Shown one piece after another: positions 1 to 40,962 of a DNA stretch of 64,000 nucleotides. The notes beneath the pieces were generated by a model. It was not told where the DNA came from and searched no databases. It saw only the letters and a list, made by a program, of their open reading frames with translations. Numbering within the stretch: the stretch's first letter is position 1; every line of letters begins with the position of its first letter. The stretch lies in the sequence record MW822008.1, one strand, 5' to 3'. This stretch comes from Escherichia phage BF17. Made by a program: the position numbers and the translations under genes.

Positions 1-2283
1 CCTGAAACGTCACCAGTTGCGACAACAGAAGATGCATTAATTACACCAAATGTACTTGGGTTAGTTGCACTAACTGATTTTGTTACTACATCAGCAGCAG
101 ACAAATCAATAGCACCAGTTACTGCAAGAGAACCACCCACAGTTACGTTACCAGTAGTTGTTAAAGAAGCAGCACTTACATCAGTAGTGCTTAAATCTAT
201 ACTACTCGGAGTTAGTGTTCCAGTAATAGTTACGTTATTAGCAAAAGTAGTGTCACCAGTAATACTTGGAACAGTTAGTGAAGCCATAGAACCAGCACCA
301 GTTACTGCAAGAGAACCACCAGATAGTGCACCAGCCGCAGTTACTGTATTACCAGATACAGACGCACCAGTAACATCACCAGTACTGGTTACTGAACTAG
401 CAGTTAGGCCAGCTAAAGTAGTGTCCCCAGCAACAGATAGTGTTGTTGTAACATCAACTTTATTTGGGGCGATATCAAGACCATCAACATCAGCTTGGGC
501 AGTTACACCAGTAGTTGTACCAGTTACTACTAAATCACGTACAGTTACAGTTTGACCAGTAACGCTAACATCACCACTGAAAGTACCTTTAGCAGCACTT
601 ACGTCACCAGTGAAGGTTGCAGCAGTACCAGTTAGTGCACCAACAACATTAGCTGTTCCACCAACTTGTAGGTTAGTTCCTACGGTGGTTTGACCAACAG
701 ATTCAAGGGTTTGTCCTTTGATTGCTTCAGCAGCAACAACAGATTTAGGAGTTAGGTCTTGACCACTTACATCAACTGTTAGGCCAGTTACAGTACCAGT
801 GAATTCAACATCATTTAGTACTGATTTACCAGCTACTTGTAGTTGTGGTGTTGCTGGACTTTGTGTACCATTACCAGTAATAGATAGATAATCTAGTTTG
901 TTTAGACCGTTACCTGTGATACCATAGGTTGCAAGAGATGCATCACCAAAGGTAGCAGTTTTTTGTACATTTAGTACTGCTGGAGATACTAGTTCAGACT
1001 GAATTTCATTTTGTAGAATTACAGTTGGACGAGCACCAGGGGCAGAATAAGCAAAACCATACTTAACGTTAGCATCGGCTGCGTTTTGTCCTAAACTTAC
1101 TGCTTTAAAATTAGCAGTACTATTAGCACCGGAAATATCAGCACCCAAAGTTACACCACCAACAAGGCTAGTTAATCCAGAAACAGTTAGAGTGTTTGCT
1201 TCAATATCATCAAGACTGAAAGTACCGCCGAGTGTACCAGATACGTTGATGTTATTAAAATTAGCAGTACCAGTACTTTCAATGTTAGGAATAGTTGCAG
1301 TTCCTGTTACTTCGAAATCATGAACTTTAGTTTTACCTGAAGTTACTTGTAATAGTGGAGTTGTTGGATCTTGAACAGAGTTACCAGATACTGTTAGGTA
1401 ATCTAGTTTGTTTAGACCATTACCAGTAATACCAAAAGTGGATAATGACGAATCACCAAAAGATGCAGTTTTCAATACACTTAGGGTAGCTGGAGACATC
1501 AATTCTGATTGGATTTCGTTCTGTAGAATTACAGTTGGACGAAGACTTGGAGCAGAATAGTTAAAGCTCAAACGGTAGTTAGTGTTTGCAGCATTGGAAC
1601 CAATTTTAATATCACGGAAGTTTGCACTACTATTCACACCAGTAATGTTGGAACCTAATGTAACACCACCTTGTAGACTGGTCAAACCAGAAACAGTTAG
1701 AGTTGTTGCATTAACATCAGATAGACTAAATGTTCCACCTAGTGTACCGGAAATATTCACATCTTTAAAGTTTGCAGTTCCAGTTGATGTAATATCAGTA
1801 GTTGCAGTGTTTGTGAATGTTGCATCAGTTGCAGTTATTGTGTCAAATGCTGCGGTAGTGCCAGTTTCAGCAGTAATGTTACCTTTAAATGAAGAAGTTC
1901 CAAGAACATCCATTGATGCCACTTGGGTATCTTTTAGTACAGCAGTGCCAGCGGTTTGTGTTAGGTTACCTGCCATTGATACTGGGCTTTGGAATTGTGC
2001 ATTAGAATTAATCGTTGCAGTATCAGAACCAACAGGTAAATTACCAATTACGGAATTACCATGAACTTCAATTCCACCATTCAATGATGCTTTACCAGCA
2101 ACATCTAGTGTAGATGAAATGTCTACAGTTTCTGCTTCAATTGCAGTGAATACAGCGTCAGCAAAAGTTACAGTTCCATTAACTGTTAGATTTTTATTGA
2201 ATACTGCATCGCCTTTCACAAGAAGATCTTTAGCAACCGTTGCACCACCAGTTATATCGAGATCTGTTTTAATCGAGTACATT
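1..2283 (-). CDS. Tail fiber protein, N-terminal ~760 aa only (gene runs off the window start)
   Basis: Minus-strand frame is open from ATG at 2281-2283 (RBS GGAGGG, tttggagggaactaaATG) to position 1; no complete minus ORF is listed here and plus ORFs 187-555 and 1582-2064 are antisense shadows. Translation MYSIKTDLDITGGATVAKD... is T/S/G/V/N-rich and beta-fiber-like with an internal ~165-aa duplication. Confidence 0.6.
836..1830 (-). repeat. Diverged tandem duplication (~2 x ~490 bp) inside the partial tail fiber gene
   Basis: Segments ~836-1330 and ~1347-1830 align at nucleotide level (shared runs such as taatctagtttgtttagacc, ttctgtagaattacagttggacg, ccagaaacagttagagt); encoded ~165-aa units are ~70% identical (TGTANF..NISGTLGGTFSL..TLTVSGLTSL..RPTVILQNEIQSEL..GITGNGLNKLDYL). 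Confidence 0.75.
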
Positions 2284-2358
2284 TAGTTCCCTCCAAATAG
2301 GCAAAAAGCATAAAATACATTTGACCTTGTTAATATACATATATTTAGTTATTGATAT

Positions 2359-2402
2359 AAAAAATCCAGACTAGATGAATCATAGTCTGGACTATTTTTT
2401 TT
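2359..2402. terminator. Intrinsic terminator hairpin flanked by A- and T-tracts (can act on either strand)
   Basis: aaaaa-CCAGACTA-gatgaatca-TAGTCTGG-actatttttttt; lies between the 299-aa gene end (2401) and the start of the partial fiber gene. Confidence 0.6.
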
Positions 2403-3300
2403 ATTTACCGGAAATTACTATTTTACCACTAAACGCTTCGTCAGAAGTGAATGTAACATTACCACTTGCATCAATTTGAGTTTCGGTTATTACCAGTTCA
2501 AATGGTGATGCTGCTGTGCTGCCTGGAGTTTTATTTGAATAAATTGAAATATACAAATTATCAGGTGTTTGGTTATGTTCAGACGCGGGGATAGTAATGG
2601 TGTATTCATCACTAGATACTACCCAATCCGCTTGGTTAATTAATTTACTATAAGGTACTGTCATTGTTGTTGCTCCTATGATGTTGACTTTGACACTTGT
2701 ATAATCAGTGATTTGACCAATAACATCAATCGTAATGTCACCAATACCACTCACAGTGACGTTAGTTTGGAATACAGTGTCAAGTGGGATGTTACCAGGG
2801 TCACCCTGTAGCTGAACCATAATATCTGGTCCACGACCATGTACTGATTCAGGTAAAGAATAAGTATATTGATCTGTTGTTCCAGGAACTAATGTAAATG
2901 CCGATACAGGAACGATTTCAGTAGTAACGTAAGAACTATCAGTACCTGGAGTTGTGCTTTGGAGAGGTTTCCAAACACCAAGGTCTTTAATATAGATCTG
3001 AATAATATTAGTACTGTCAACTAAGAAGTAAGCGTCACCATCTACACCGATTGATTCAGATGGTGCAATAGTTCCACGTAAAATACCGGAACCGCCACCA
3101 CCACCGCTATGTGTATTCAAATAACCCAATGTAACCAAGTGTGTATTTGCGGTTGGGTCACCTGCTGAAACAGGAAGAAGTTGTGTACCCGTGTAGTTCT
3201 GGATTTGAACAACATTACCATTAGTGGCAATTTGTGCACCATTTTTACCAAGTATGAAGGTCTTCTTCATGGTTCCTTCTAAATTAGAAAAAACTGCCAT
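2401..3300 (-). CDS. Tail fiber/tailspike-like protein (299 aa) with the shared N-terminal module MAVFSNLEGTM
   Basis: ATG at 3298-3300 with RBS AAGGAGA; N-terminus identical to that of the next gene; Gly-run linker (HSGGGGGSG) then beta-rich C-terminal domain. Confidence 0.6.
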   Translation of the reverse strand: MAVFSNLEGTMKKTFILGKNGAQIATNGNVVQIQNYTGTQLLPVSAGDPTANTHLVTLGYLNTHSGGGGGSGILRGTIAPSESIGVDGDAYFLVDSTNIIQIYIKDLGVWKPLQSTTPGTDSSYVTTEIVPVSAFTLVPGTTDQYTYSLPESVHGRGPDIMVQLQGDPGNIPLDTVFQTNVTVSGIGDITIDVIGQITDYTSVKVNIIGATTMTVPYSKLINQADWVVSSDEYTITIPASEHNQTPDNLYISIYSNKTPGSTAASPFELVITETQIDASGNVTFTSDEAFSGKIVISGK

Positions 3301-3314
3301 TTTTATAATCTCCT

Positions 3315-5456
3315 TTAAGATAGGGTGATATATGTTATTGGTTGAGCAGCTTTCAATAATGCCCCTGCTGCGGTAGCAGTAACAATCGGATCGGCAATAT
3401 CGATACGATACGCATTATTAACAACATAAACTGCTCTAGTGATATATGTTTTTAAATCTTCGCCGTTTTCCCCTGCTCCTGTGATTAGGATTTCGGTTCC
3501 AGCAGCTTTAGCATATTGATTTTCACCCCATGATACACCCAATGCTTCGATATAAGTTTGTCCTGCAACTGTTTGTCTAATTGTGTCATATCGACCAAAG
3601 AAAGAACCACCTACTGTAACAATAAATTTTCCACCTGATTGTTTATGGATAATTGTTCCTTCTGGGAAATATCTCCCACCAGGAAAAACATCATAAGGCA
3701 CGTAATACTGTTCAACTACAGGTATTACTACAGGTCCACGATGACCCGTTCCATCAATTGCAGTGGTTACTTTAAAGTTATTAGATGATTGGTCAATACG
3801 GTCAACATACATTCTTGAGAAACTATATTTTGATATGTTACAATCATCTTGAACAACACAATTAGTCCAGTTGGTATATGTATATTTAGAGCGAGTATAT
3901 AAGCCCCCTCCTTCACCTTCAGTTGCAAGGTGTTGTCCAATAACATCAAGTTCTTTAGTACTGATATTATTAAACTTGGAAGATGACGGCAATCCACGCC
4001 ATTGAATTCTACTACATGTAATATTAGAAAGTTCAGTAGTATTTAGCCAATTATCAGAGCCTGATGTATGCACAATAATAGACGACTCAGGAATGTGGAG
4101 ATTACATAATTTAAAGTTACGTGGAGGACCAGCAAATTTACCAGATGTTACACCCCAGTTAATAGAAACCATACGGTTAGTTACTGATGGATCATTTAAT
4201 AGATGTCCAGATAGGCCATCAATAATAAAATCAACAGAACCATAAGTAATTACACCAGCGGTTGTCAAACCAGTACCAATTGATACCAATGTCGATGGAT
4301 AAACTTCATTATTAAGAATTTTAAAGTCTTTACCCAATTCAACGTGAATACATTGACGAACATTGTATAAGCGGTTATTTTTTATAACGAATTTTTTTAC
4401 ATATTGTGAATCATCTGCATTCACATCATAAGGACCAGAACCAGCAACGCCGATACCAATACCCCAGTTTGAAAGAGGAATTGGTGCATCTGTACCATCT
4501 ACGTTTTCAATCAAGTTACCTTCTATTACAAAACCGTCTGGGTAATGTGAGTTGACTACGTTCAATTCAATTGCATCACCATATATATCATGGATGTGGT
4601 TGTATGAATAACGCCCAACTGTCATTTTCTCACCAGTGCCTTGCTGAAGAACACCGTACTTACATTGTGTCATTTCATTAAAGCAGAAGTCGATAGTACC
4701 TGATTCAGTCATACCTTGCATTAGAAATGCAGCAGTACTTGTAATATTAATAAATTTATTAAAATAAAATTTACCATTACCACCAAAGAATTTTAAATAA
4801 CATCCTGTTAATGTTGCTTGTTGGATTGTACTATTCAGTACTGATACCATTGTTCCACCGTTACCAGTGATTGTTCCACCAAACCATTGAATATCATTCA
4901 AATAAACAGCAGTTCTGATACGATAATTACCACCAGCTTGAATTTGGATTTGGTGTTCTTTTGCATAAACTGCACATGCGTTAACCGCCGCCGTGTCATC
5001 AGTGATGCCATCACCTTTTGCACCAAACTCTTCTGGAGTTATGTAAAACTGTGCCTGTTGGAGTGTTCCTCCAGTAATAAGTCCGATATAATCAGCACCG
5101 TTAACACTGGAAAGGACATTTTTATTAATGTATAATGATTTTACCCAAACATCATTTGTTTTTGCAAAGATATCAACAATACCCTCAGAATCAACTTGAA
5201 AATAAGTGTTGTTATTTTTACCAATGTCATTTGTTGGTGGAAGCACGCCAAATAAAGCATTTGGGTTATCTTCAAGATACCTAACGTTTACTGCGGAATC
5301 ATCGTCATTAGGAGTTCCCACCTTAACAGGTAGGAACGTTTCGCCTAAAAAGTCTTTGATTGCGACAGAATCGTTTACAAAATTAATAGAAGCACCACGT
5401 TTACCCAACTTAAATGTTGGCATCATGGTTCCTTCTAAATTGGAAAAAACTGCCAT
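3315..5456 (-). CDS. Tailspike protein with right-handed beta-helix / pectate-lyase-like domain (putative polysaccharide depolymerase), 713 aa
   Basis: ATG at 5454-5456 with RBS GAGGG; N-terminal MAVFSNLEGTM module; motif EEFGAKGDGITDDTAAV is the classic signature of pectate-lyase-fold tailspikes. Confidence 0.65.
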   Translation of the reverse strand: MAVFSNLEGTMMPTFKLGKRGASINFVNDSVAIKDFLGETFLPVKVGTPNDDDSAVNVRYLEDNPNALFGVLPPTNDIGKNNNTYFQVDSEGIVDIFAKTNDVWVKSLYINKNVLSSVNGADYIGLITGGTLQQAQFYITPEEFGAKGDGITDDTAAVNACAVYAKEHQIQIQAGGNYRIRTAVYLNDIQWFGGTITGNGGTMVSVLNSTIQQATLTGCYLKFFGGNGKFYFNKFINITSTAAFLMQGMTESGTIDFCFNEMTQCKYGVLQQGTGEKMTVGRYSYNHIHDIYGDAIELNVVNSHYPDGFVIEGNLIENVDGTDAPIPLSNWGIGIGVAGSGPYDVNADDSQYVKKFVIKNNRLYNVRQCIHVELGKDFKILNNEVYPSTLVSIGTGLTTAGVITYGSVDFIIDGLSGHLLNDPSVTNRMVSINWGVTSGKFAGPPRNFKLCNLHIPESSIIVHTSGSDNWLNTTELSNITCSRIQWRGLPSSSKFNNISTKELDVIGQHLATEGEGGGLYTRSKYTYTNWTNCVVQDDCNISKYSFSRMYVDRIDQSSNNFKVTTAIDGTGHRGPVVIPVVEQYYVPYDVFPGGRYFPEGTIIHKQSGGKFIVTVGGSFFGRYDTIRQTVAGQTYIEALGVSWGENQYAKAAGTEILITGAGENGEDLKTYITRAVYVVNNAYRIDIADPIVTATAAGALLKAAQPITYITLS

Positions 5457-37257: not shown

Positions 37258-39405
37258 GTGCTAAACATTACACGTATATCAATGAGGAACTTCTTTTCAT
37301 TTGGCAATGCACCACAAGTAATTGATTTGTCTGGTGCTGATATATCGTTAGTTCTTGGTCAAAACAATGATGCAGTTATTGAAGGTGGTGATAGTTCCGG
37401 TCGCCGTAATGGTGTTGGTAAAAGTGCCATAATTCAAGGTTTAGTTTTTGGTTTGTTTGGAAAAAGTATTGGTAACGATATCAAAATTCCAAACTTAGTT
37501 AATAAAACTAATGCTAAAAACTGTGAAGTATCTGTTGAGTTCGAGAAAGATGGTGTACAATATCTCGTCGAGCGTGGGAGAAGTCCCACGTATTTCAACT
37601 TTATTACATTAGGTAAAGATAATAAGGTCGAAGATGAGTCAAGAGGGGAGAAGAAAGATACACAAGAAGATCTAAACGAGATTCTTGGGATTTCTCAACT
37701 ACTATTTGAACATATTGTAGTACTTAATGCTAACGTAGAGCCGTTTCTTGCATTATCATCACAGAAACAACGTGATATGATTGAGGAACTTCTGGGTATC
37801 ACACAATTAACAGAGAAAGCTGAACTATTAAAGGATATGTATAAAGATTCTAAACGTTTAGCTGAACAAGAAAAGTTCAAAATTGAAACTGTGGCTGCAA
37901 GTAATGAACGTATTCAAAAAAGTATTGAATCATTACAAGAACAAGCTAACCAATTTGAGATTGATAAAAATAATAGAGTATCTAAGTTGACTGAAGAATT
38001 GAATATCTACAAAACTTTAGACTTCAACGATCTCTATGATTTGGCAGAAGTGAAAGAGAAAGCTCTTATTCATAATGCTGCTCGTGATCAAATAGAAAGA
38101 CGTGTACAAGAGTTAGCTTTGAAGTATGATGCATATGACCGTGAACTGGCAACAGCAAAATTAGCATTAAATGTAAGTATTGATAAGCTAAAAACTATTG
38201 ATATCAGTACTGAATTAGAAAATCACAATGAGTTGGAGATATGGAAACAGTTGGAGGGTATTCTAAAAGAGAATAATAACCAAAAACGTTTCAAAGAACA
38301 AAAACTTAACGCATTAAAGGTGGCGTTAAATGGACATGATAGTTCTTTACGTGCTGAGGTGGACAAATTAGCAACAGTGGAGAGTAGTAAATGTCCACTT
38401 TGTATGTCCGAATTAGAACATAATGAACATACTTCGTCTATTAAAGATAAAATTCAAAATACTATTAATGAACTTCAATCTAAAATTGATAGTTCCACTT
38501 CTGAAATTGAAACATTACTTCAGGAAATTGATAGTATTGAGATTTTTGATATGCCACCTAAGCCTGTGACATTCTATTCTACACTAACTGAAGCACAAAT
38601 GCATGAGCATAAGCTTCAAGAACTTATTAAAAAGAGTGAAGAAGAGCAAATTAACATCTATGCTAATGAACTTATGTCATCATATGAAGAACTGAACGCA
38701 CATGTTCTTCAAGAAGTACCAGATACATTGAATAAATCTGAAGTAAAAGAGTTAGAAATGACTGTAACTTCATTATCACAGCAATTAGATCGTGAATTGA
38801 AAACTACTAACACATTTATTGGACAAATTAATACACTTACGACCGATTCATTAGTACCAATCGACTATAGTGACTATAATAACCTTGATAAGATGGCAAA
38901 TCACCAAGATTTCTTGGTTAAATTGTTGTTAAACAAGGATTCTTATGTCCGTAAGCGTATTATTGAACAAAACATTTCGTATCTGAATACACGTCTTCAA
39001 TATTACATTGATATGTGTGGTTCTGAACATAATGTTGTGTTCTTGAATGATTTGAGTGTAGAAATTGAGAAAAGTGGTCAGTACTTTGACTATAAACAGC
39101 TTAGTCGTGGTGAGCGTACAAGGGTAAACATTGCTTTATCTTGTGCTTTCCGTGATACATATGAGTCATTGTATCAAAGTATCAATATTCTTATCATTGA
39201 TGAGATGATTGACCAAGGTCTTGATTCAAGTGGTGTTCTTCGCGTGTGGTCTATCTTCCAAGATATGGCTGCTGTGCGTGGTAAGAATGTATATGCCATT
39301 TCTCACAGAGAAGAATTGCTTTCTAAGACTGAGAAAATCCTAAAAGTAGTTAAAGAGGATGGTTTCAGTACTGTTGAGTATACAACTCTTGATGATGTAT
39401 TCTAA
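37258..39405 (+). CDS. 46: Recombination ATPase subunit, gp46 / SbcC / Rad50-like
   Basis: N-terminal P-loop GRRNGVGKS, long coiled coil with central zinc hook CPLC, C-terminal signature QLSRGE and Walker B ILIIDE; apparent GTG start with RBS AAGGGAAA. Confidence 0.85.
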   Translation: MLNITRISMRNFFSFGNAPQVIDLSGADISLVLGQNNDAVIEGGDSSGRRNGVGKSAIIQGLVFGLFGKSIGNDIKIPNLVNKTNAKNCEVSVEFEKDGVQYLVERGRSPTYFNFITLGKDNKVEDESRGEKKDTQEDLNEILGISQLLFEHIVVLNANVEPFLALSSQKQRDMIEELLGITQLTEKAELLKDMYKDSKRLAEQEKFKIETVAASNERIQKSIESLQEQANQFEIDKNNRVSKLTEELNIYKTLDFNDLYDLAEVKEKALIHNAARDQIERRVQELALKYDAYDRELATAKLALNVSIDKLKTIDISTELENHNELEIWKQLEGILKENNNQKRFKEQKLNALKVALNGHDSSLRAEVDKLATVESSKCPLCMSELEHNEHTSSIKDKIQNTINELQSKIDSSTSEIETLLQEIDSIEIFDMPPKPVTFYSTLTEAQMHEHKLQELIKKSEEEQINIYANELMSSYEELNAHVLQEVPDTLNKSEVKELEMTVTSLSQQLDRELKTTNTFIGQINTLTTDSLVPIDYSDYNNLDKMANHQDFLVKLLLNKDSYVRKRIIEQNISYLNTRLQYYIDMCGSEHNVVFLNDLSVEIEKSGQYFDYKQLSRGERTRVNIALSCAFRDTYESLYQSINILIIDEMIDQGLDSSGVLRVWSIFQDMAAVRGKNVYAISHREELLSKTEKILKVVKEDGFSTVEYTTLDDVF

Positions 39406-39414
39406 TTAAAAGGA

Positions 39415-39440
39415 AAGGGAGCCTTAGCTCCCTTTTTTTA
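39415..39440. terminator. Bidirectional intrinsic terminator
   Basis: aaagg-GGGAGC-ctta-GCTCCC-tttttttat where gp46 (+) and the endo VII-like gene (-) converge. Confidence 0.7.
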
Positions 39441-39915
39441 TATCTACCATATTTAATTTGCCTTCCTTGATAAGCTTTCTGGCTTGCTTAACACGAGCAG
39501 CATTGTTTGCACCAGGGATAACACCTAACTCTTCCAGTATTGCATTCTGTTGTCCTGCTGGGAGCCTTTTAAACTTATTCGTATCGATTGTTAGTGCAGT
39601 GTGATGTATAACTTGCTCATCTTCAGGAATGCTGTTATTACGCTCCAGATAATCCGCAAGATTTCGTAGTACCTCGTATAAGGGTTTATCGGTTAAGTGC
39701 TTCATATAGCGATTAAAGCTGTTCTGTACTTTACCTTCCCATGCGTTCACTTCGTTCTGGAGAACTTCACGACAGTGTTGATTCTCGAAGTGATAGTGAT
39801 CAAGTACTGGCTTAGTTATTGGTTCCTTAATTATAGGATCAATTCCTTTTTGCTTCTTTAGTAATTCATTTCGATAGTTTGCAGCTTCTTTACTATCTTT
39901 TAATCTTTTCTTCAT
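39424..39915 (-). CDS. Endonuclease VII-like protein (T4 gp49 homolog) lacking the zinc-binding cysteines
   Basis: Blocks LDHYHFE, NEVNAWEGKVQNSFNRY, YEVLRNLADYLE and KFKRLP parallel T4 endo VII (LDHDHE, CNLCNAAEGQMKHKFNRSGL, DYLEWLENLLTYL, EFSRLGK) from memory; the CxxC pairs are absent. Confidence 0.55.
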   Translation of the reverse strand: MKKRLKDSKEAANYRNELLKKQKGIDPIIKEPITKPVLDHYHFENQHCREVLQNEVNAWEGKVQNSFNRYMKHLTDKPLYEVLRNLADYLERNNSIPEDEQVIHHTALTIDTNKFKRLPAGQQNAILEELGVIPGANNAARVKQARKLIKEGKLNMVDIKKGS

Positions 39916-40007
39916 AAATCCCCACTAAACTAATTCTTATCAAAATATTTATGCGTTACTTCAATGTTCAAGAATTATGTACTTTTTATAAATTTTTTAT
40001 CATAATA

Positions 40008-40037
40008 GTGAGACACTTTTGAATTTGGTGCTATAAT
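40008..40037 (+). promoter_or_regulatory. Sigma70-type promoter with extended -10, no ORF downstream
   Basis: TGAGAC, 18-bp spacer, TGcTATAAT (-10 at 40032-40037); same core as the gp55 promoter. Confidence 0.5.
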
Positions 40038-40043
40038 GTTAAT

Positions 40044-40499
40044 TGTAGTGATGACAATCCTGTTGAATGCAGAAATGCATATAAATTAGAACCTGATCCT
40101 ATCGAAAATGTAGATGGCAGATGAGCAGTTCAACAGTGCGATGAGCAGAAGAAACCCGTTAGATGTGGGCATAGTTTGAACCCCTCACGGCGACACGGCT
40201 CAATAAAGAACTCCGATAAGCATACAGAGAGTTCCTCGATAGATGTATAAGGATCGCACCTTACCAGATTTGCTAAGGGAGTTTATTAAGTGATTTAATA
40301 AACAGCCTGAAGTTTGATTGTATAGACTTTCAGGTGAGTGTCAGGATGATTAAGACTGACGACCGTTGCACATGACTGCGATAGAGAGAAACAGAGCAAC
40401 CCGCTTTCGTTCTTAATGAATTTTAAGAAATTCGCAATACAATAAATGCTGAAACCATCAGCGTCAAGAATTAAGAGACTTAATTGTCTCTTTTTTATT
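40044..40499 (+). ncRNA. Candidate non-coding transcript (~450 nt) of unknown class; alternatively an origin-associated primer transcript
   Basis: Bounded by the promoter at 40008-40037 and the terminator at 40473-40499; longest plus-strand ORFs are 12-21 codons with no RBS; contains direct repeat GATGAGCAG (40117, 40140) and local hairpins. Confidence 0.35.
40473..40499 (+). terminator. Intrinsic terminator (plus strand)
   Basis: AAGAGAC-ttaatt-GTCTCTT-TTTTATT. Confidence 0.65.
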
Positions 40500-40501
40500 G
40501 T

Positions 40502-40524
40502 CTTCATTCCCCTGCGGGGGGATG
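40502..40524. other. Stable GC-rich hairpin flanked by direct repeats TGTCTTCA
   Basis: TCATTCCCC-tgc-GGGGGATGA, 9-bp stem with one G-U pair, in an otherwise AT-rich intergenic context; no U-tract on either side. Confidence 0.5.
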
Positions 40525-40715
40525 AAAATGTCTTCAACAAATCCCGTCAAGTATTAAATCTTTTAAAGTTCTTTATAATTAATTATAAGAAATGAATATG
40601 AGTTACGTAGTAACGAATATTCTTCAGCTAACGAATGAAATGAGTTAGATGAGTTCACTATAAAATAATTAATTCCTTTCATAATTCAATTCAATCAATT
40701 CTGTAGTTTAAAACC

Positions 40716-40741
40716 AAAAAAAACCAGCAACAATGTGCTGG
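40716..40741 (-). terminator. Intrinsic terminator of the minus-strand operon 41798-40753
   Basis: Minus strand reads CCAGCA-cattgt-TGCTGG followed by a run of eight T. Confidence 0.7.
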
Positions 40742-40752
40742 CTCCTTGTGAG

Positions 40753-40962
40753 TTAGTGCTTCTCGTTTTGTTTTTTAATTTTCTTATTAAAAGACTTAAC
40801 TAATAAGTCTCTATCAATTAGTGGCATATTAAGTAGTGTTCCGTAATCAACACTTTCCATATAAACAGAACACTCCATTAATGCAGTTTTAATATCTGAC
40901 TTATTCAACTCAAATTCCTTAAGTACTTCTTGTATTTCTTCAGGAGATGAGTGGAGAAGCAT
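40753..40962 (-). CDS. Hypothetical small protein (69 aa)
   Basis: 1-nt overlap with the upstream gene; followed by a terminator. Confidence 0.4.
   Translation of the reverse strand: MLLHSSPEEIQEVLKEFELNKSDIKTALMECSVYMESVDYGTLLNMPLIDRDLLVKSFNKKIKKQNEKH

Follow-up and report, generated by a model that had tools for sequence, protein, structure and literature searches.

An endonuclease VII homologue without the structural zinc site in Escherichia phage BF17

The endonuclease VII gene and its zinc-site positions

The DNA analysed here is a 64,000-nucleotide stretch of Escherichia phage BF17 (sequence record MW822008.1; hereafter the window), and its subject is a gene for a homologue of T4 endonuclease VII in which the cysteines that hold the structural zinc of the T4 enzyme have been replaced. 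The coding sequence, stop codon included, occupies positions 39424..39915 of the minus strand, exactly where the first-pass annotation, made from the sequence alone, had placed it, and consists of an ATG-initiated open reading frame (ORF) of 163 codons, as seen in both the ORF list and the sequence. It runs convergently with a gp46/SbcC-like gene of 715 aa, whose end lies at 39405. The 163-aa product shares every residue with the protein annotated as "DNA endonuclease VII" in Escherichia phage Ecwhy_1 (100% identity). Ecwhy_1 is a jumbo phage of the 121Q/PBECO4/RaK2-like type, as is the phage from which the window derives, and the 5 kb surrounding the gene share 99.5–99.7% identity with several Escherichia phages of 355–384 kb. 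The name endonuclease VII is already attached to this gene in databases, and the large group of phage relatives that share its zinc-less state had previously gone unremarked. Selection on the gene is strongly purifying, with a ratio of nonsynonymous to synonymous substitution rates (dN/dS) of 0.06 at dS = 0.88 in the comparison with PBECO4.

T4 endonuclease VII (gp49) is the textbook phage junction resolvase, in which the N-terminal loop is anchored to the beginning of the catalytic helix by a Cys4-zinc knuckle, and this zinc site is regarded as a signature of the family. The residues of the window protein were placed against it in four alignments, namely a family-wide MAFFT alignment, one with closer zinc-retaining sisters, a HMMER alignment to 1e7d, and hhalign, all of which agree on a single register. 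The T4 zinc ligands C23, C26, C58, and C61 correspond to D26, I29, Q53, and V56, so that both CxxC pairs are lost, as had been claimed at first reading. The former first knuckle is D26-P27-I28-I29 (39829..39840, minus strand), aligned with T4 C23-L24-I25-C26; the segment KKQKGIDP was initially named as its replacement, but the true counterpart lies a few residues further downstream. The proposal that QNEV stands in place of CNLC proved exact, since Q53-N54-E55-V56 aligns with T4 C58-N59-L60-C61 within the block Q53-N54-E55-V56-N57-A58-W59-E60 (39736..39759, minus strand), which also carries the catalytic N57 and E60 (T4 N62 and E65) and the aromatic W59. A structural zinc site of the form CX2-4C...CX2C around DHxH is therefore absent, and the zinc knuckle that, in His-Me nucleases of the treble-clef or zinc-knuckle type, precedes the beta hairpin and draws some of its ligands from the N-terminus of the helix has no ligands in this protein. 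Nor can cysteines at shifted positions account for the difference: residues 1–47 contain none, the sole cysteine is C48 (39772..39774, minus strand), located in the second beta strand and aligned with the non-ligand T4 residue V53, and one cysteine cannot supply a Cys4 site however the register is shifted.

The catalytic residues are retained. The DHxH block D39-H40-Y41-H42 (39790..39801, minus strand) aligns with T4 D40-H41-D42-H43 and is invariant in all alignments, and T4 D40, H41, H43, R54, N62, E65, E86, and H105 correspond to D39, H40, H42, R49, N57, E60, E81, and H104, which bears out the earlier reading of a preserved Asp/His region and Asn/Glu pair. Across an alignment of 48 sequences of the jumbo-phage clade to which the window protein belongs, none of which has a zinc site, D39, H40, H42, R49, N57, E60, and E81 are invariant, as are D26 and G61, while P27 and I28 are at least 90% conserved.

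Several lines of evidence establish the protein as a full-length endonuclease VII homologue, in keeping with the block-by-block match to the T4 enzyme reported at first reading. The PHROG 423 family ("endonuclease VII") matches residues 1–148 (E = 2.8e-34), and a profile built from the 48 clade sequences, searched against 177,635 PDB sequences, returned T4 endonuclease VII as its sole match (E = 2e-7), spanning T4 residues 19–139 of 157. The hhalign comparison with T4 endonuclease VII gave a probability of 95.8% (E = 7e-9); the T4 reference sequence was checked and is identical to that of PDB entries 1e7d and 1en7. An AlphaFold monomer prediction on the clade alignment reached a mean predicted local distance difference test score (pLDDT) of 92.1 and a predicted template modelling score (pTM) of 0.64, with pLDDT values of 97–98 at residues 21–40 and 51–60 (98 for residues 21–30), that is, at the former knuckle and the start of the helix. 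Predicted secondary structure consists of strands at 36–41 and 47–53, a helix at 54–70, and then five more helices, and the model has a beta-beta-alpha-metal core followed by a helical domain, C-terminal as in T4 endonuclease VII. When this model was compared with PDB by Foldseek, the only significant matches were 1e7l, 1en7, and 2qnf (TM 0.59–0.71 over 161 columns, E = 6e-7), and its matches in the viral structure library BFVD were phage proteins named endonuclease VII. The extended helices and the pTM of 0.64 in the predicted model are compatible with an intertwined dimer.

Distribution of the loss and what may take the place of zinc

Absence of the zinc site extends well beyond the window. 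All 120 close homologues found in a collection of 5.8 billion proteins lack the Cys quartet, and a profile search of 1.84 billion cluster representatives recovered 649 relatives at E ≤ 0.001, 215 of them at E ≤ 1e-10. The best 150 of these 649 representatives were classified together with the window protein, T4 endonuclease VII, and the K1E homologue, less two fragments, giving 151 sequences; 140 lack a complete zinc site, and 11 have the full site. Full-site representatives numbered 11 (eight CCCC and three CCHC), or 13 with T4 and K1E, two of which were presumably dropped by the classification. D-H-x-H and N are kept in 148 of the 151. The ranking is biased toward zinc-less sequences because the query profile is itself zinc-less; the zinc-less group is large and diverse despite this bias, and includes Ralstonia podophages, a Pakpunavirus-like Limnohabitans phage, and a Psychrobacter phage, whereas K1E gp21 retains CPIC...CRGC. 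The loss that the first-pass annotation presented as a feature of this gene is thus real but not peculiar to it, being the majority state among the nearest 150 representatives. Our literature searches, of incomplete coverage, found no description of a zinc-less endonuclease VII subfamily.

In a rough neighbour-joining tree (about 150 columns, no support values, and poorly resolved), zinc-retaining sequences fall in at least three places, and two of these sequences, P0146 and P0157 (36–40% identity), branch together as the sister group of the window clade. As a hint, this suggests that the zinc site was lost repeatedly. The two sisters resemble the window protein over their whole length, with the same catalytic residues and near-identical C-terminal motifs (for example L-x-A-x-x-Q...P-x-x-N...R-x-x-Q-x-R-x-L-I-K-x-G-K); in contrast to the window protein, they and the K1E/SP6-type gp21 keep C-x-x-C...C-x-x-C.

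To judge from the aligned columns, the replacement of zinc appears patterned rather than random. In zinc-less sequences, the first ligand position is Asp or a lone Cys, with Asp in about half of the representatives; the second is Thr or Leu (Ile in the window protein); the third is a polar His, Asp, Ser, or Gln; and the fourth is small (Val, Ala, Ser, or Thr). The W59 position, three residues past the fourth ligand, is aromatic in 86 of the 140 zinc-less sequences compared with 2 of the 11 zinc-type ones. The C48 column, by comparison, is V, I, or C family-wide, with C in 42/140 zinc-less and 7/11 zinc-type sequences.

We propose that a metal-free "zincless knuckle" would stand in place of the Cys4-zinc knuckle, made up of the invariant D26 in G-x-D-P-I, the polar Q53, the small hydrophobic V56 at the helix start, and the bulky W59 one turn on. 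Where the catalytic helix begins, D26 may serve as a cap or hydrogen-bonding partner, and the former metal position may be filled by the packing of I28, I29, V56, and W59. A precedent for the metal-free replacement of a structural zinc motif is the "zincless finger" of NEIL1 and plant MMH (PMC9266487), Fpg/Nei DNA glycosylases in which such a motif has given way to a near-identical metal-free structure with function kept (PMC9266487). These belong to an unrelated fold and enzyme class, so the comparison is an analogy and not a homology, and the zincless structure of NEIL1 has been solved whereas that of the window protein is predicted. The wider proposition, that a large and diverse branch of phage endonucleases VII works without structural metal and that an Asp-capped, aromatic-packed zincless knuckle took over from the zinc knuckle on several independent occasions, we regard as evenly poised.

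A separate arrangement was seen in rV5-like endonuclease VII homologues (Escherichia phage JES2013, Vequintavirus, locus ~289..819), which have four cysteines at mostly non-T4 positions, ...DPILCEPLRKPCLDHDH...GRCRGVLSQCTN..., the last alone corresponding to a T4 ligand. By their sequence, these proteins may carry a relocated metal site. The annotated "Endo VII" coding sequence of JES2013 (541..819) comprises only the C-terminal part of the ORF, leaving the catalytic half unannotated.

Function and family membership

We consider it likely that the window protein is an active, zinc-independent resolvase of Holliday junctions or branched DNA, the counterpart of T4 gp49, and we infer that it would act without zinc by way of a zincless knuckle. 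The roles of the catalytic residues in T4 endonuclease VII are known from T4 structures. They have also been summarised in PMC6083498. Catalysis would proceed by the ordinary endonuclease VII beta-beta-alpha-metal site, with D39 and N57 holding the catalytic divalent ion, H40 serving as the base, and H42, R49, and E60 assisting. The enzyme would be an intertwined dimer formed from the conserved helical C-terminal half, and would remove branches from replicated and recombined DNA before or during packaging.

The resemblance to T4 endonuclease VII (gp49; 1en7, 1e7d, 1e7l, 2qnc, and 2qnf) extends to length class (163 versus 157 aa), the order of secondary-structure elements and the predicted fold over 161 columns, the catalytic residues, and the setting of a phage gene linked to T4-like recombination and packaging. 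The two differ in that identity is only about 27%, in the four zinc ligands, in a four-residue "LNGP" insertion in the beta hairpin of the T4 protein that the window protein does not have, and in genomic neighbourhood, with gp46/47 and genes of the baseplate hub as neighbours of the window gene. The arrangement of baseplate hub, small ORF, long gap, endonuclease VII, and convergent gp46 recurs in Asteriusvirus, Alcyoneusvirus, Mimasvirus, and Eneladusvirus, and synteny with the gp46/gp47 recombination nuclease genes is conserved across these genera. In TH47, a complete sister genome, a family-wide endonuclease VII profile that included zinc-type members was run against all ORFs and gave one match (E = 1.4e-58); no second endonuclease VII-family gene was detected (next best E = 0.075), which excludes an endonuclease VII paralogue but not unrelated resolvases. 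Across jumbo phages, endonuclease VII-like resolvases and RuvC have been described as near-complementary in distribution (PMC7824862); for resolvases outside the endonuclease VII family the analysis relies on that survey, on the condition that 121Q-like phages belong to its subgroup 2.2. Purifying selection, the lone family member in TH47, the gene order, and this survey all speak for a retained resolvase function. A look for RuvC, RusA, and endo I-type resolvases through the annotation of fEgEco12 was uninformative, nearly all entries being "hypothetical protein".

Several observations weigh against a zinc-independent resolvase. According to the summary given in PMC6083498, either of the single mutations C23S and C61S abolishes both the activity and the DNA binding of T4 endonuclease VII, which means that the T4 enzyme does not tolerate simple loss of the site. 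Neither the profile search of PDB nor our literature searches found a zinc-less member that had been assayed or solved. The roles given above to D26, Q53, and W59 follow from alignment position only, and AlphaFold confidence is no proof of metal-free stability. Finally, recognition by family models is weak, as the window protein scores 16.4 bits against Pfam PF02945, under the gathering cut-off of 23.6 bits, and has no match in NCBIfam.

The first-pass annotation had left two alternatives, a fold stabilised differently or a shifted function. The former is favoured because the catalytic residues are invariant, dN/dS is 0.06, the whole T4 fold is predicted, and TH47 has no second endonuclease VII gene. 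With a shifted function, the protein would be a nuclease that acts on another substrate or serves another purpose (nicking, cutting of mismatches or heteroduplexes, degradation of host DNA, or homing-type cleavage as in F-CphI or Hpy99I), or a DNA-binding protein without resolution activity. The endonuclease VII catalytic motif does serve other roles, in the restriction enzyme Hpy99I and the homing endonuclease F-CphI (PMC6083498, PMC5714182), and the loss of DNA binding in the T4 zinc-site mutants could point the same way. Nonetheless, Hpy99I and F-CphI share the catalytic domain only, whereas the window protein matches T4 endonuclease VII along the whole chain, including the helical half responsible for dimerisation and DNA binding; its catalytic residues are invariant under strongly purifying selection, its genome has no other member of the family, judging from sister TH47, and its position beside the gp46/gp47 genes is kept across genera. 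We therefore regard a shifted function as improbable.

Slightly less probable still is that the site remains metal-dependent through other ligands, either D26 and a polar position 53 (perhaps with backbone or water) binding Mg2+ or Ca2+, or a new site using C48, H47, H73, or H105. The frequency of Asp at the first ligand position and of Asp or His at the third, in combinations such as DTDT, DTDV, DTHV, and DTHS, would suit the first version, and the second could draw on the jumbo-phage clade, in which H73, H104, and H105 are as invariant as D26 and C48 is at least 90% conserved. However, only two of the four positions in the window protein are polar (D26 and Q53), and I29 and V56 are unable to ligate metal. 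Outside the clade, the C48, H73, and H105 columns are unconserved (mostly V/I, W/H/Y/K, and P, respectively), which argues against a general replacement metal site, and the C48/H73/H105 site was set aside on this ground. By the register of the predicted strands, C48 probably adjoins the catalytic H40, away from the old knuckle.

Single-sequence evidence for homology is thin: besides the Pfam result, most clade members are without a precomputed Pfam match, a phmmer search of PDB with the window protein found no match, and BLASTP against T4 endonuclease VII gave a weak alignment (E = 7e-5) limited to residues 49–130. The profile and structure evidence is decisive, with both a profile alignment and a structure prediction, proposed at first reading as the checks to be made, pointing to a significant relationship and to the T4 fold. 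That the resemblance is spurious and the missing cysteines a product of misalignment, which such weak searches might suggest, can be dismissed with near certainty, given that four independent methods yield one register, that P0146 and P0157 align unambiguously with cysteines at exactly all four positions, that the fold search returns T4 endonuclease VII only, and that a protein with one cysteine cannot form a Cys4 site in any register.

Membership of the family depends on the definition applied. The published pattern for the "DHHRN"/PF02945 family, which includes Hpy99I and F-CphI, places DHDH in the centre, with CX2-4C on its N-terminal and CX2C on its C-terminal side (PMC6083498). The window protein has all of D, H, H, R, and N as defined there (PMC6083498), but both Cys flanks are gone and the Pfam score is under the cut-off. 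Many His-Me fingers are known without a knuckle, with endonuclease VII counted among those that have one (PMC5714182). The zinc-less subfamily is thus endonuclease VII by homology, catalytic residues, and predicted fold, and lies outside the typical definition by the published pattern and the Pfam threshold; since the zinc site is absent here and in 140 of the 151 classified sequences, we file the protein as a zinc-less variant rather than as a typical member. If most of the nearest relatives do without the zinc site, the family definition, and the Pfam model that misses them, need widening.

Should the wider proposition of a metal-free branch hold, junction resolution and DNA packaging would be freed from the host zinc supply, and the motif G-x-D-P-I...Q/H/D-x-x-V-N-x-W/F would represent a natural recipe for turning a zinc-dependent His-Me nuclease into a metal-independent fold. 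If most of the nearest relatives lack the site, they also form a natural series for the study of structural-zinc replacement, comparable to the NEIL1 zincless finger, and zinc-free resolvases could be convenient reagents for cleaving mismatches and branches in the presence of chelators or oxidants. In biological terms the surprise is modest, as the presumed role of the gene in the phage is unchanged: absence of the site is mildly surprising given the T4 mutants, but not startling given how frequent zinc-free His-Me fingers are.

Putative transcription signals and an upstream structured RNA element

A G+C-rich hairpin with a 9-pair stem, AAAGGGAGC-TAAG-GCTCCCTTT, was found by terminator scan and in the sequence at 39414..39435, spanning the endonuclease VII stop codon between the convergent endonuclease VII and gp46 genes. 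On the minus strand the stem is followed by a T-run. With A-runs bordering one side and T-runs the other, the hairpin is probably a bidirectional intrinsic terminator. The first-pass annotation had assigned the gene to its own minus-strand unit, convergent with gp46/gp47. Convergence with gp46, a shared hairpin terminator, and a late-promoter-like motif upstream of the ATG agree with that description, but a separate unit is only partly supported because the gene is immediately preceded by a conserved structured RNA element of like orientation, with which it could share a transcript. The junction between endonuclease VII and gp46 is variable among close relatives, as RaK2 (locus 1692..2723), CBB (locus 1679..2413), and TH47 (263092..264102) have an extra gene there that the window phage does not have; its annotation is RB49 ORF239c-like in RaK2 and "structural protein" in CBB.

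On the start side of the gene, a Shine-Dalgarno-like purine run, GGGG, lies 4 nt upstream of the ATG (39920..39923, minus strand), and the motif ATAAATA, which resembles T4 late promoters, lies 30 nt upstream (39946..39952, minus strand). The position reads TATAAATA in PBECO4 and has TAAATA-like variants in RaK2, CBB, and fHe-Yen9-03, and for the related phages CBB and GAP32, ATAAATA has been reported as the putative motif of late promoters (PMC5259590). A late promoter at this site would fit a late packaging role as in T4, a reading that is only suggestive, as a 7-mer in AT-rich DNA is a weak signal.

The 840 nt upstream of the gene (39916..40752) contain no convincing ORF, yet are conserved above the level of the surrounding genes. 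This stretch is 92.7% identical to PBECO4, while synonymous sites in the endonuclease VII gene are near saturation, and some 530 nt of it show about 70% identity to phages of other genera. It contains a core of about 500 nt (40047..40552, minus strand) that looks like a structured RNA. The core occurs in four to five diverged copies per genome in 71 RaK2-like jumbo phages; TH47 has four, all in one orientation, at about 49, 146, 262, and 345 kb, three of which are antisense to neighbouring genes. RNAalifold, applied to an alignment of 13 copies and 697 columns, predicted 80 pairs, 31 of them with compensatory double changes. In this alignment, 96.4% of cells pair, compared with 38–46% when partners are slid by one to three columns, and the observed covariation was reached by 0 of 500 shuffles. 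Many pairs are invariant or alternating G-U pairs, which points to the sense strand of endonuclease VII as that of the RNA.

No meaningful match to the element was obtained in Rfam, either at the gathering threshold or at E ≤ 10, ARAGORN detected no tRNA or tmRNA in it, and nhmmer found no detectable similarity to the four RNA-seq-defined non-coding RNAs (ncRNAs) of the related jumbo phage PA5oct. The conserved 23-nt motif of the element occurs in IMG/VR mostly on contigs of 348–378 kb and otherwise on a small number of shorter fragments. A search of 185,579 bacterial species genomes gave one match, in Citrobacter amalonaticus P55 (NZ_JBALIF010000001.1, about 3554..4111 of the stretch examined), where solely the ~560-nt element resembles jumbo phage. 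A large serine recombinase flanks this copy on one side and a CI-like S24 repressor on the other, with type IV pilus genes nearby, which places it at the edge of a temperate prophage and means that the RNA family extends beyond jumbo phages. The element looks like a candidate new family of large structured phage ncRNAs, and may be of more interest than the zinc-less endonuclease VII itself.

Upstream of the element, a strong terminator-like hairpin with a 12-pair stem followed by a T-run (40718..40747 on the minus strand and 40735..40759 on the plus strand) lies just downstream of a 69-aa ORF (40753..40962). This hairpin forms a boundary between the baseplate-hub transcription unit and the part that holds the RNA element and endonuclease VII. 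Two conserved sigma-70-like boxes are located inside the element or at its 5' edge, both on the minus strand: TTGACG-N17-TTTCAT at 40550..40522 (TATCAT or TACCAT in other genera) and TTGACG-N17-TATTGT at 40467..40439. The first could drive a transcript containing all covariation-supported helices, while the second overlaps a covarying helix and is therefore probably RNA sequence rather than a promoter.

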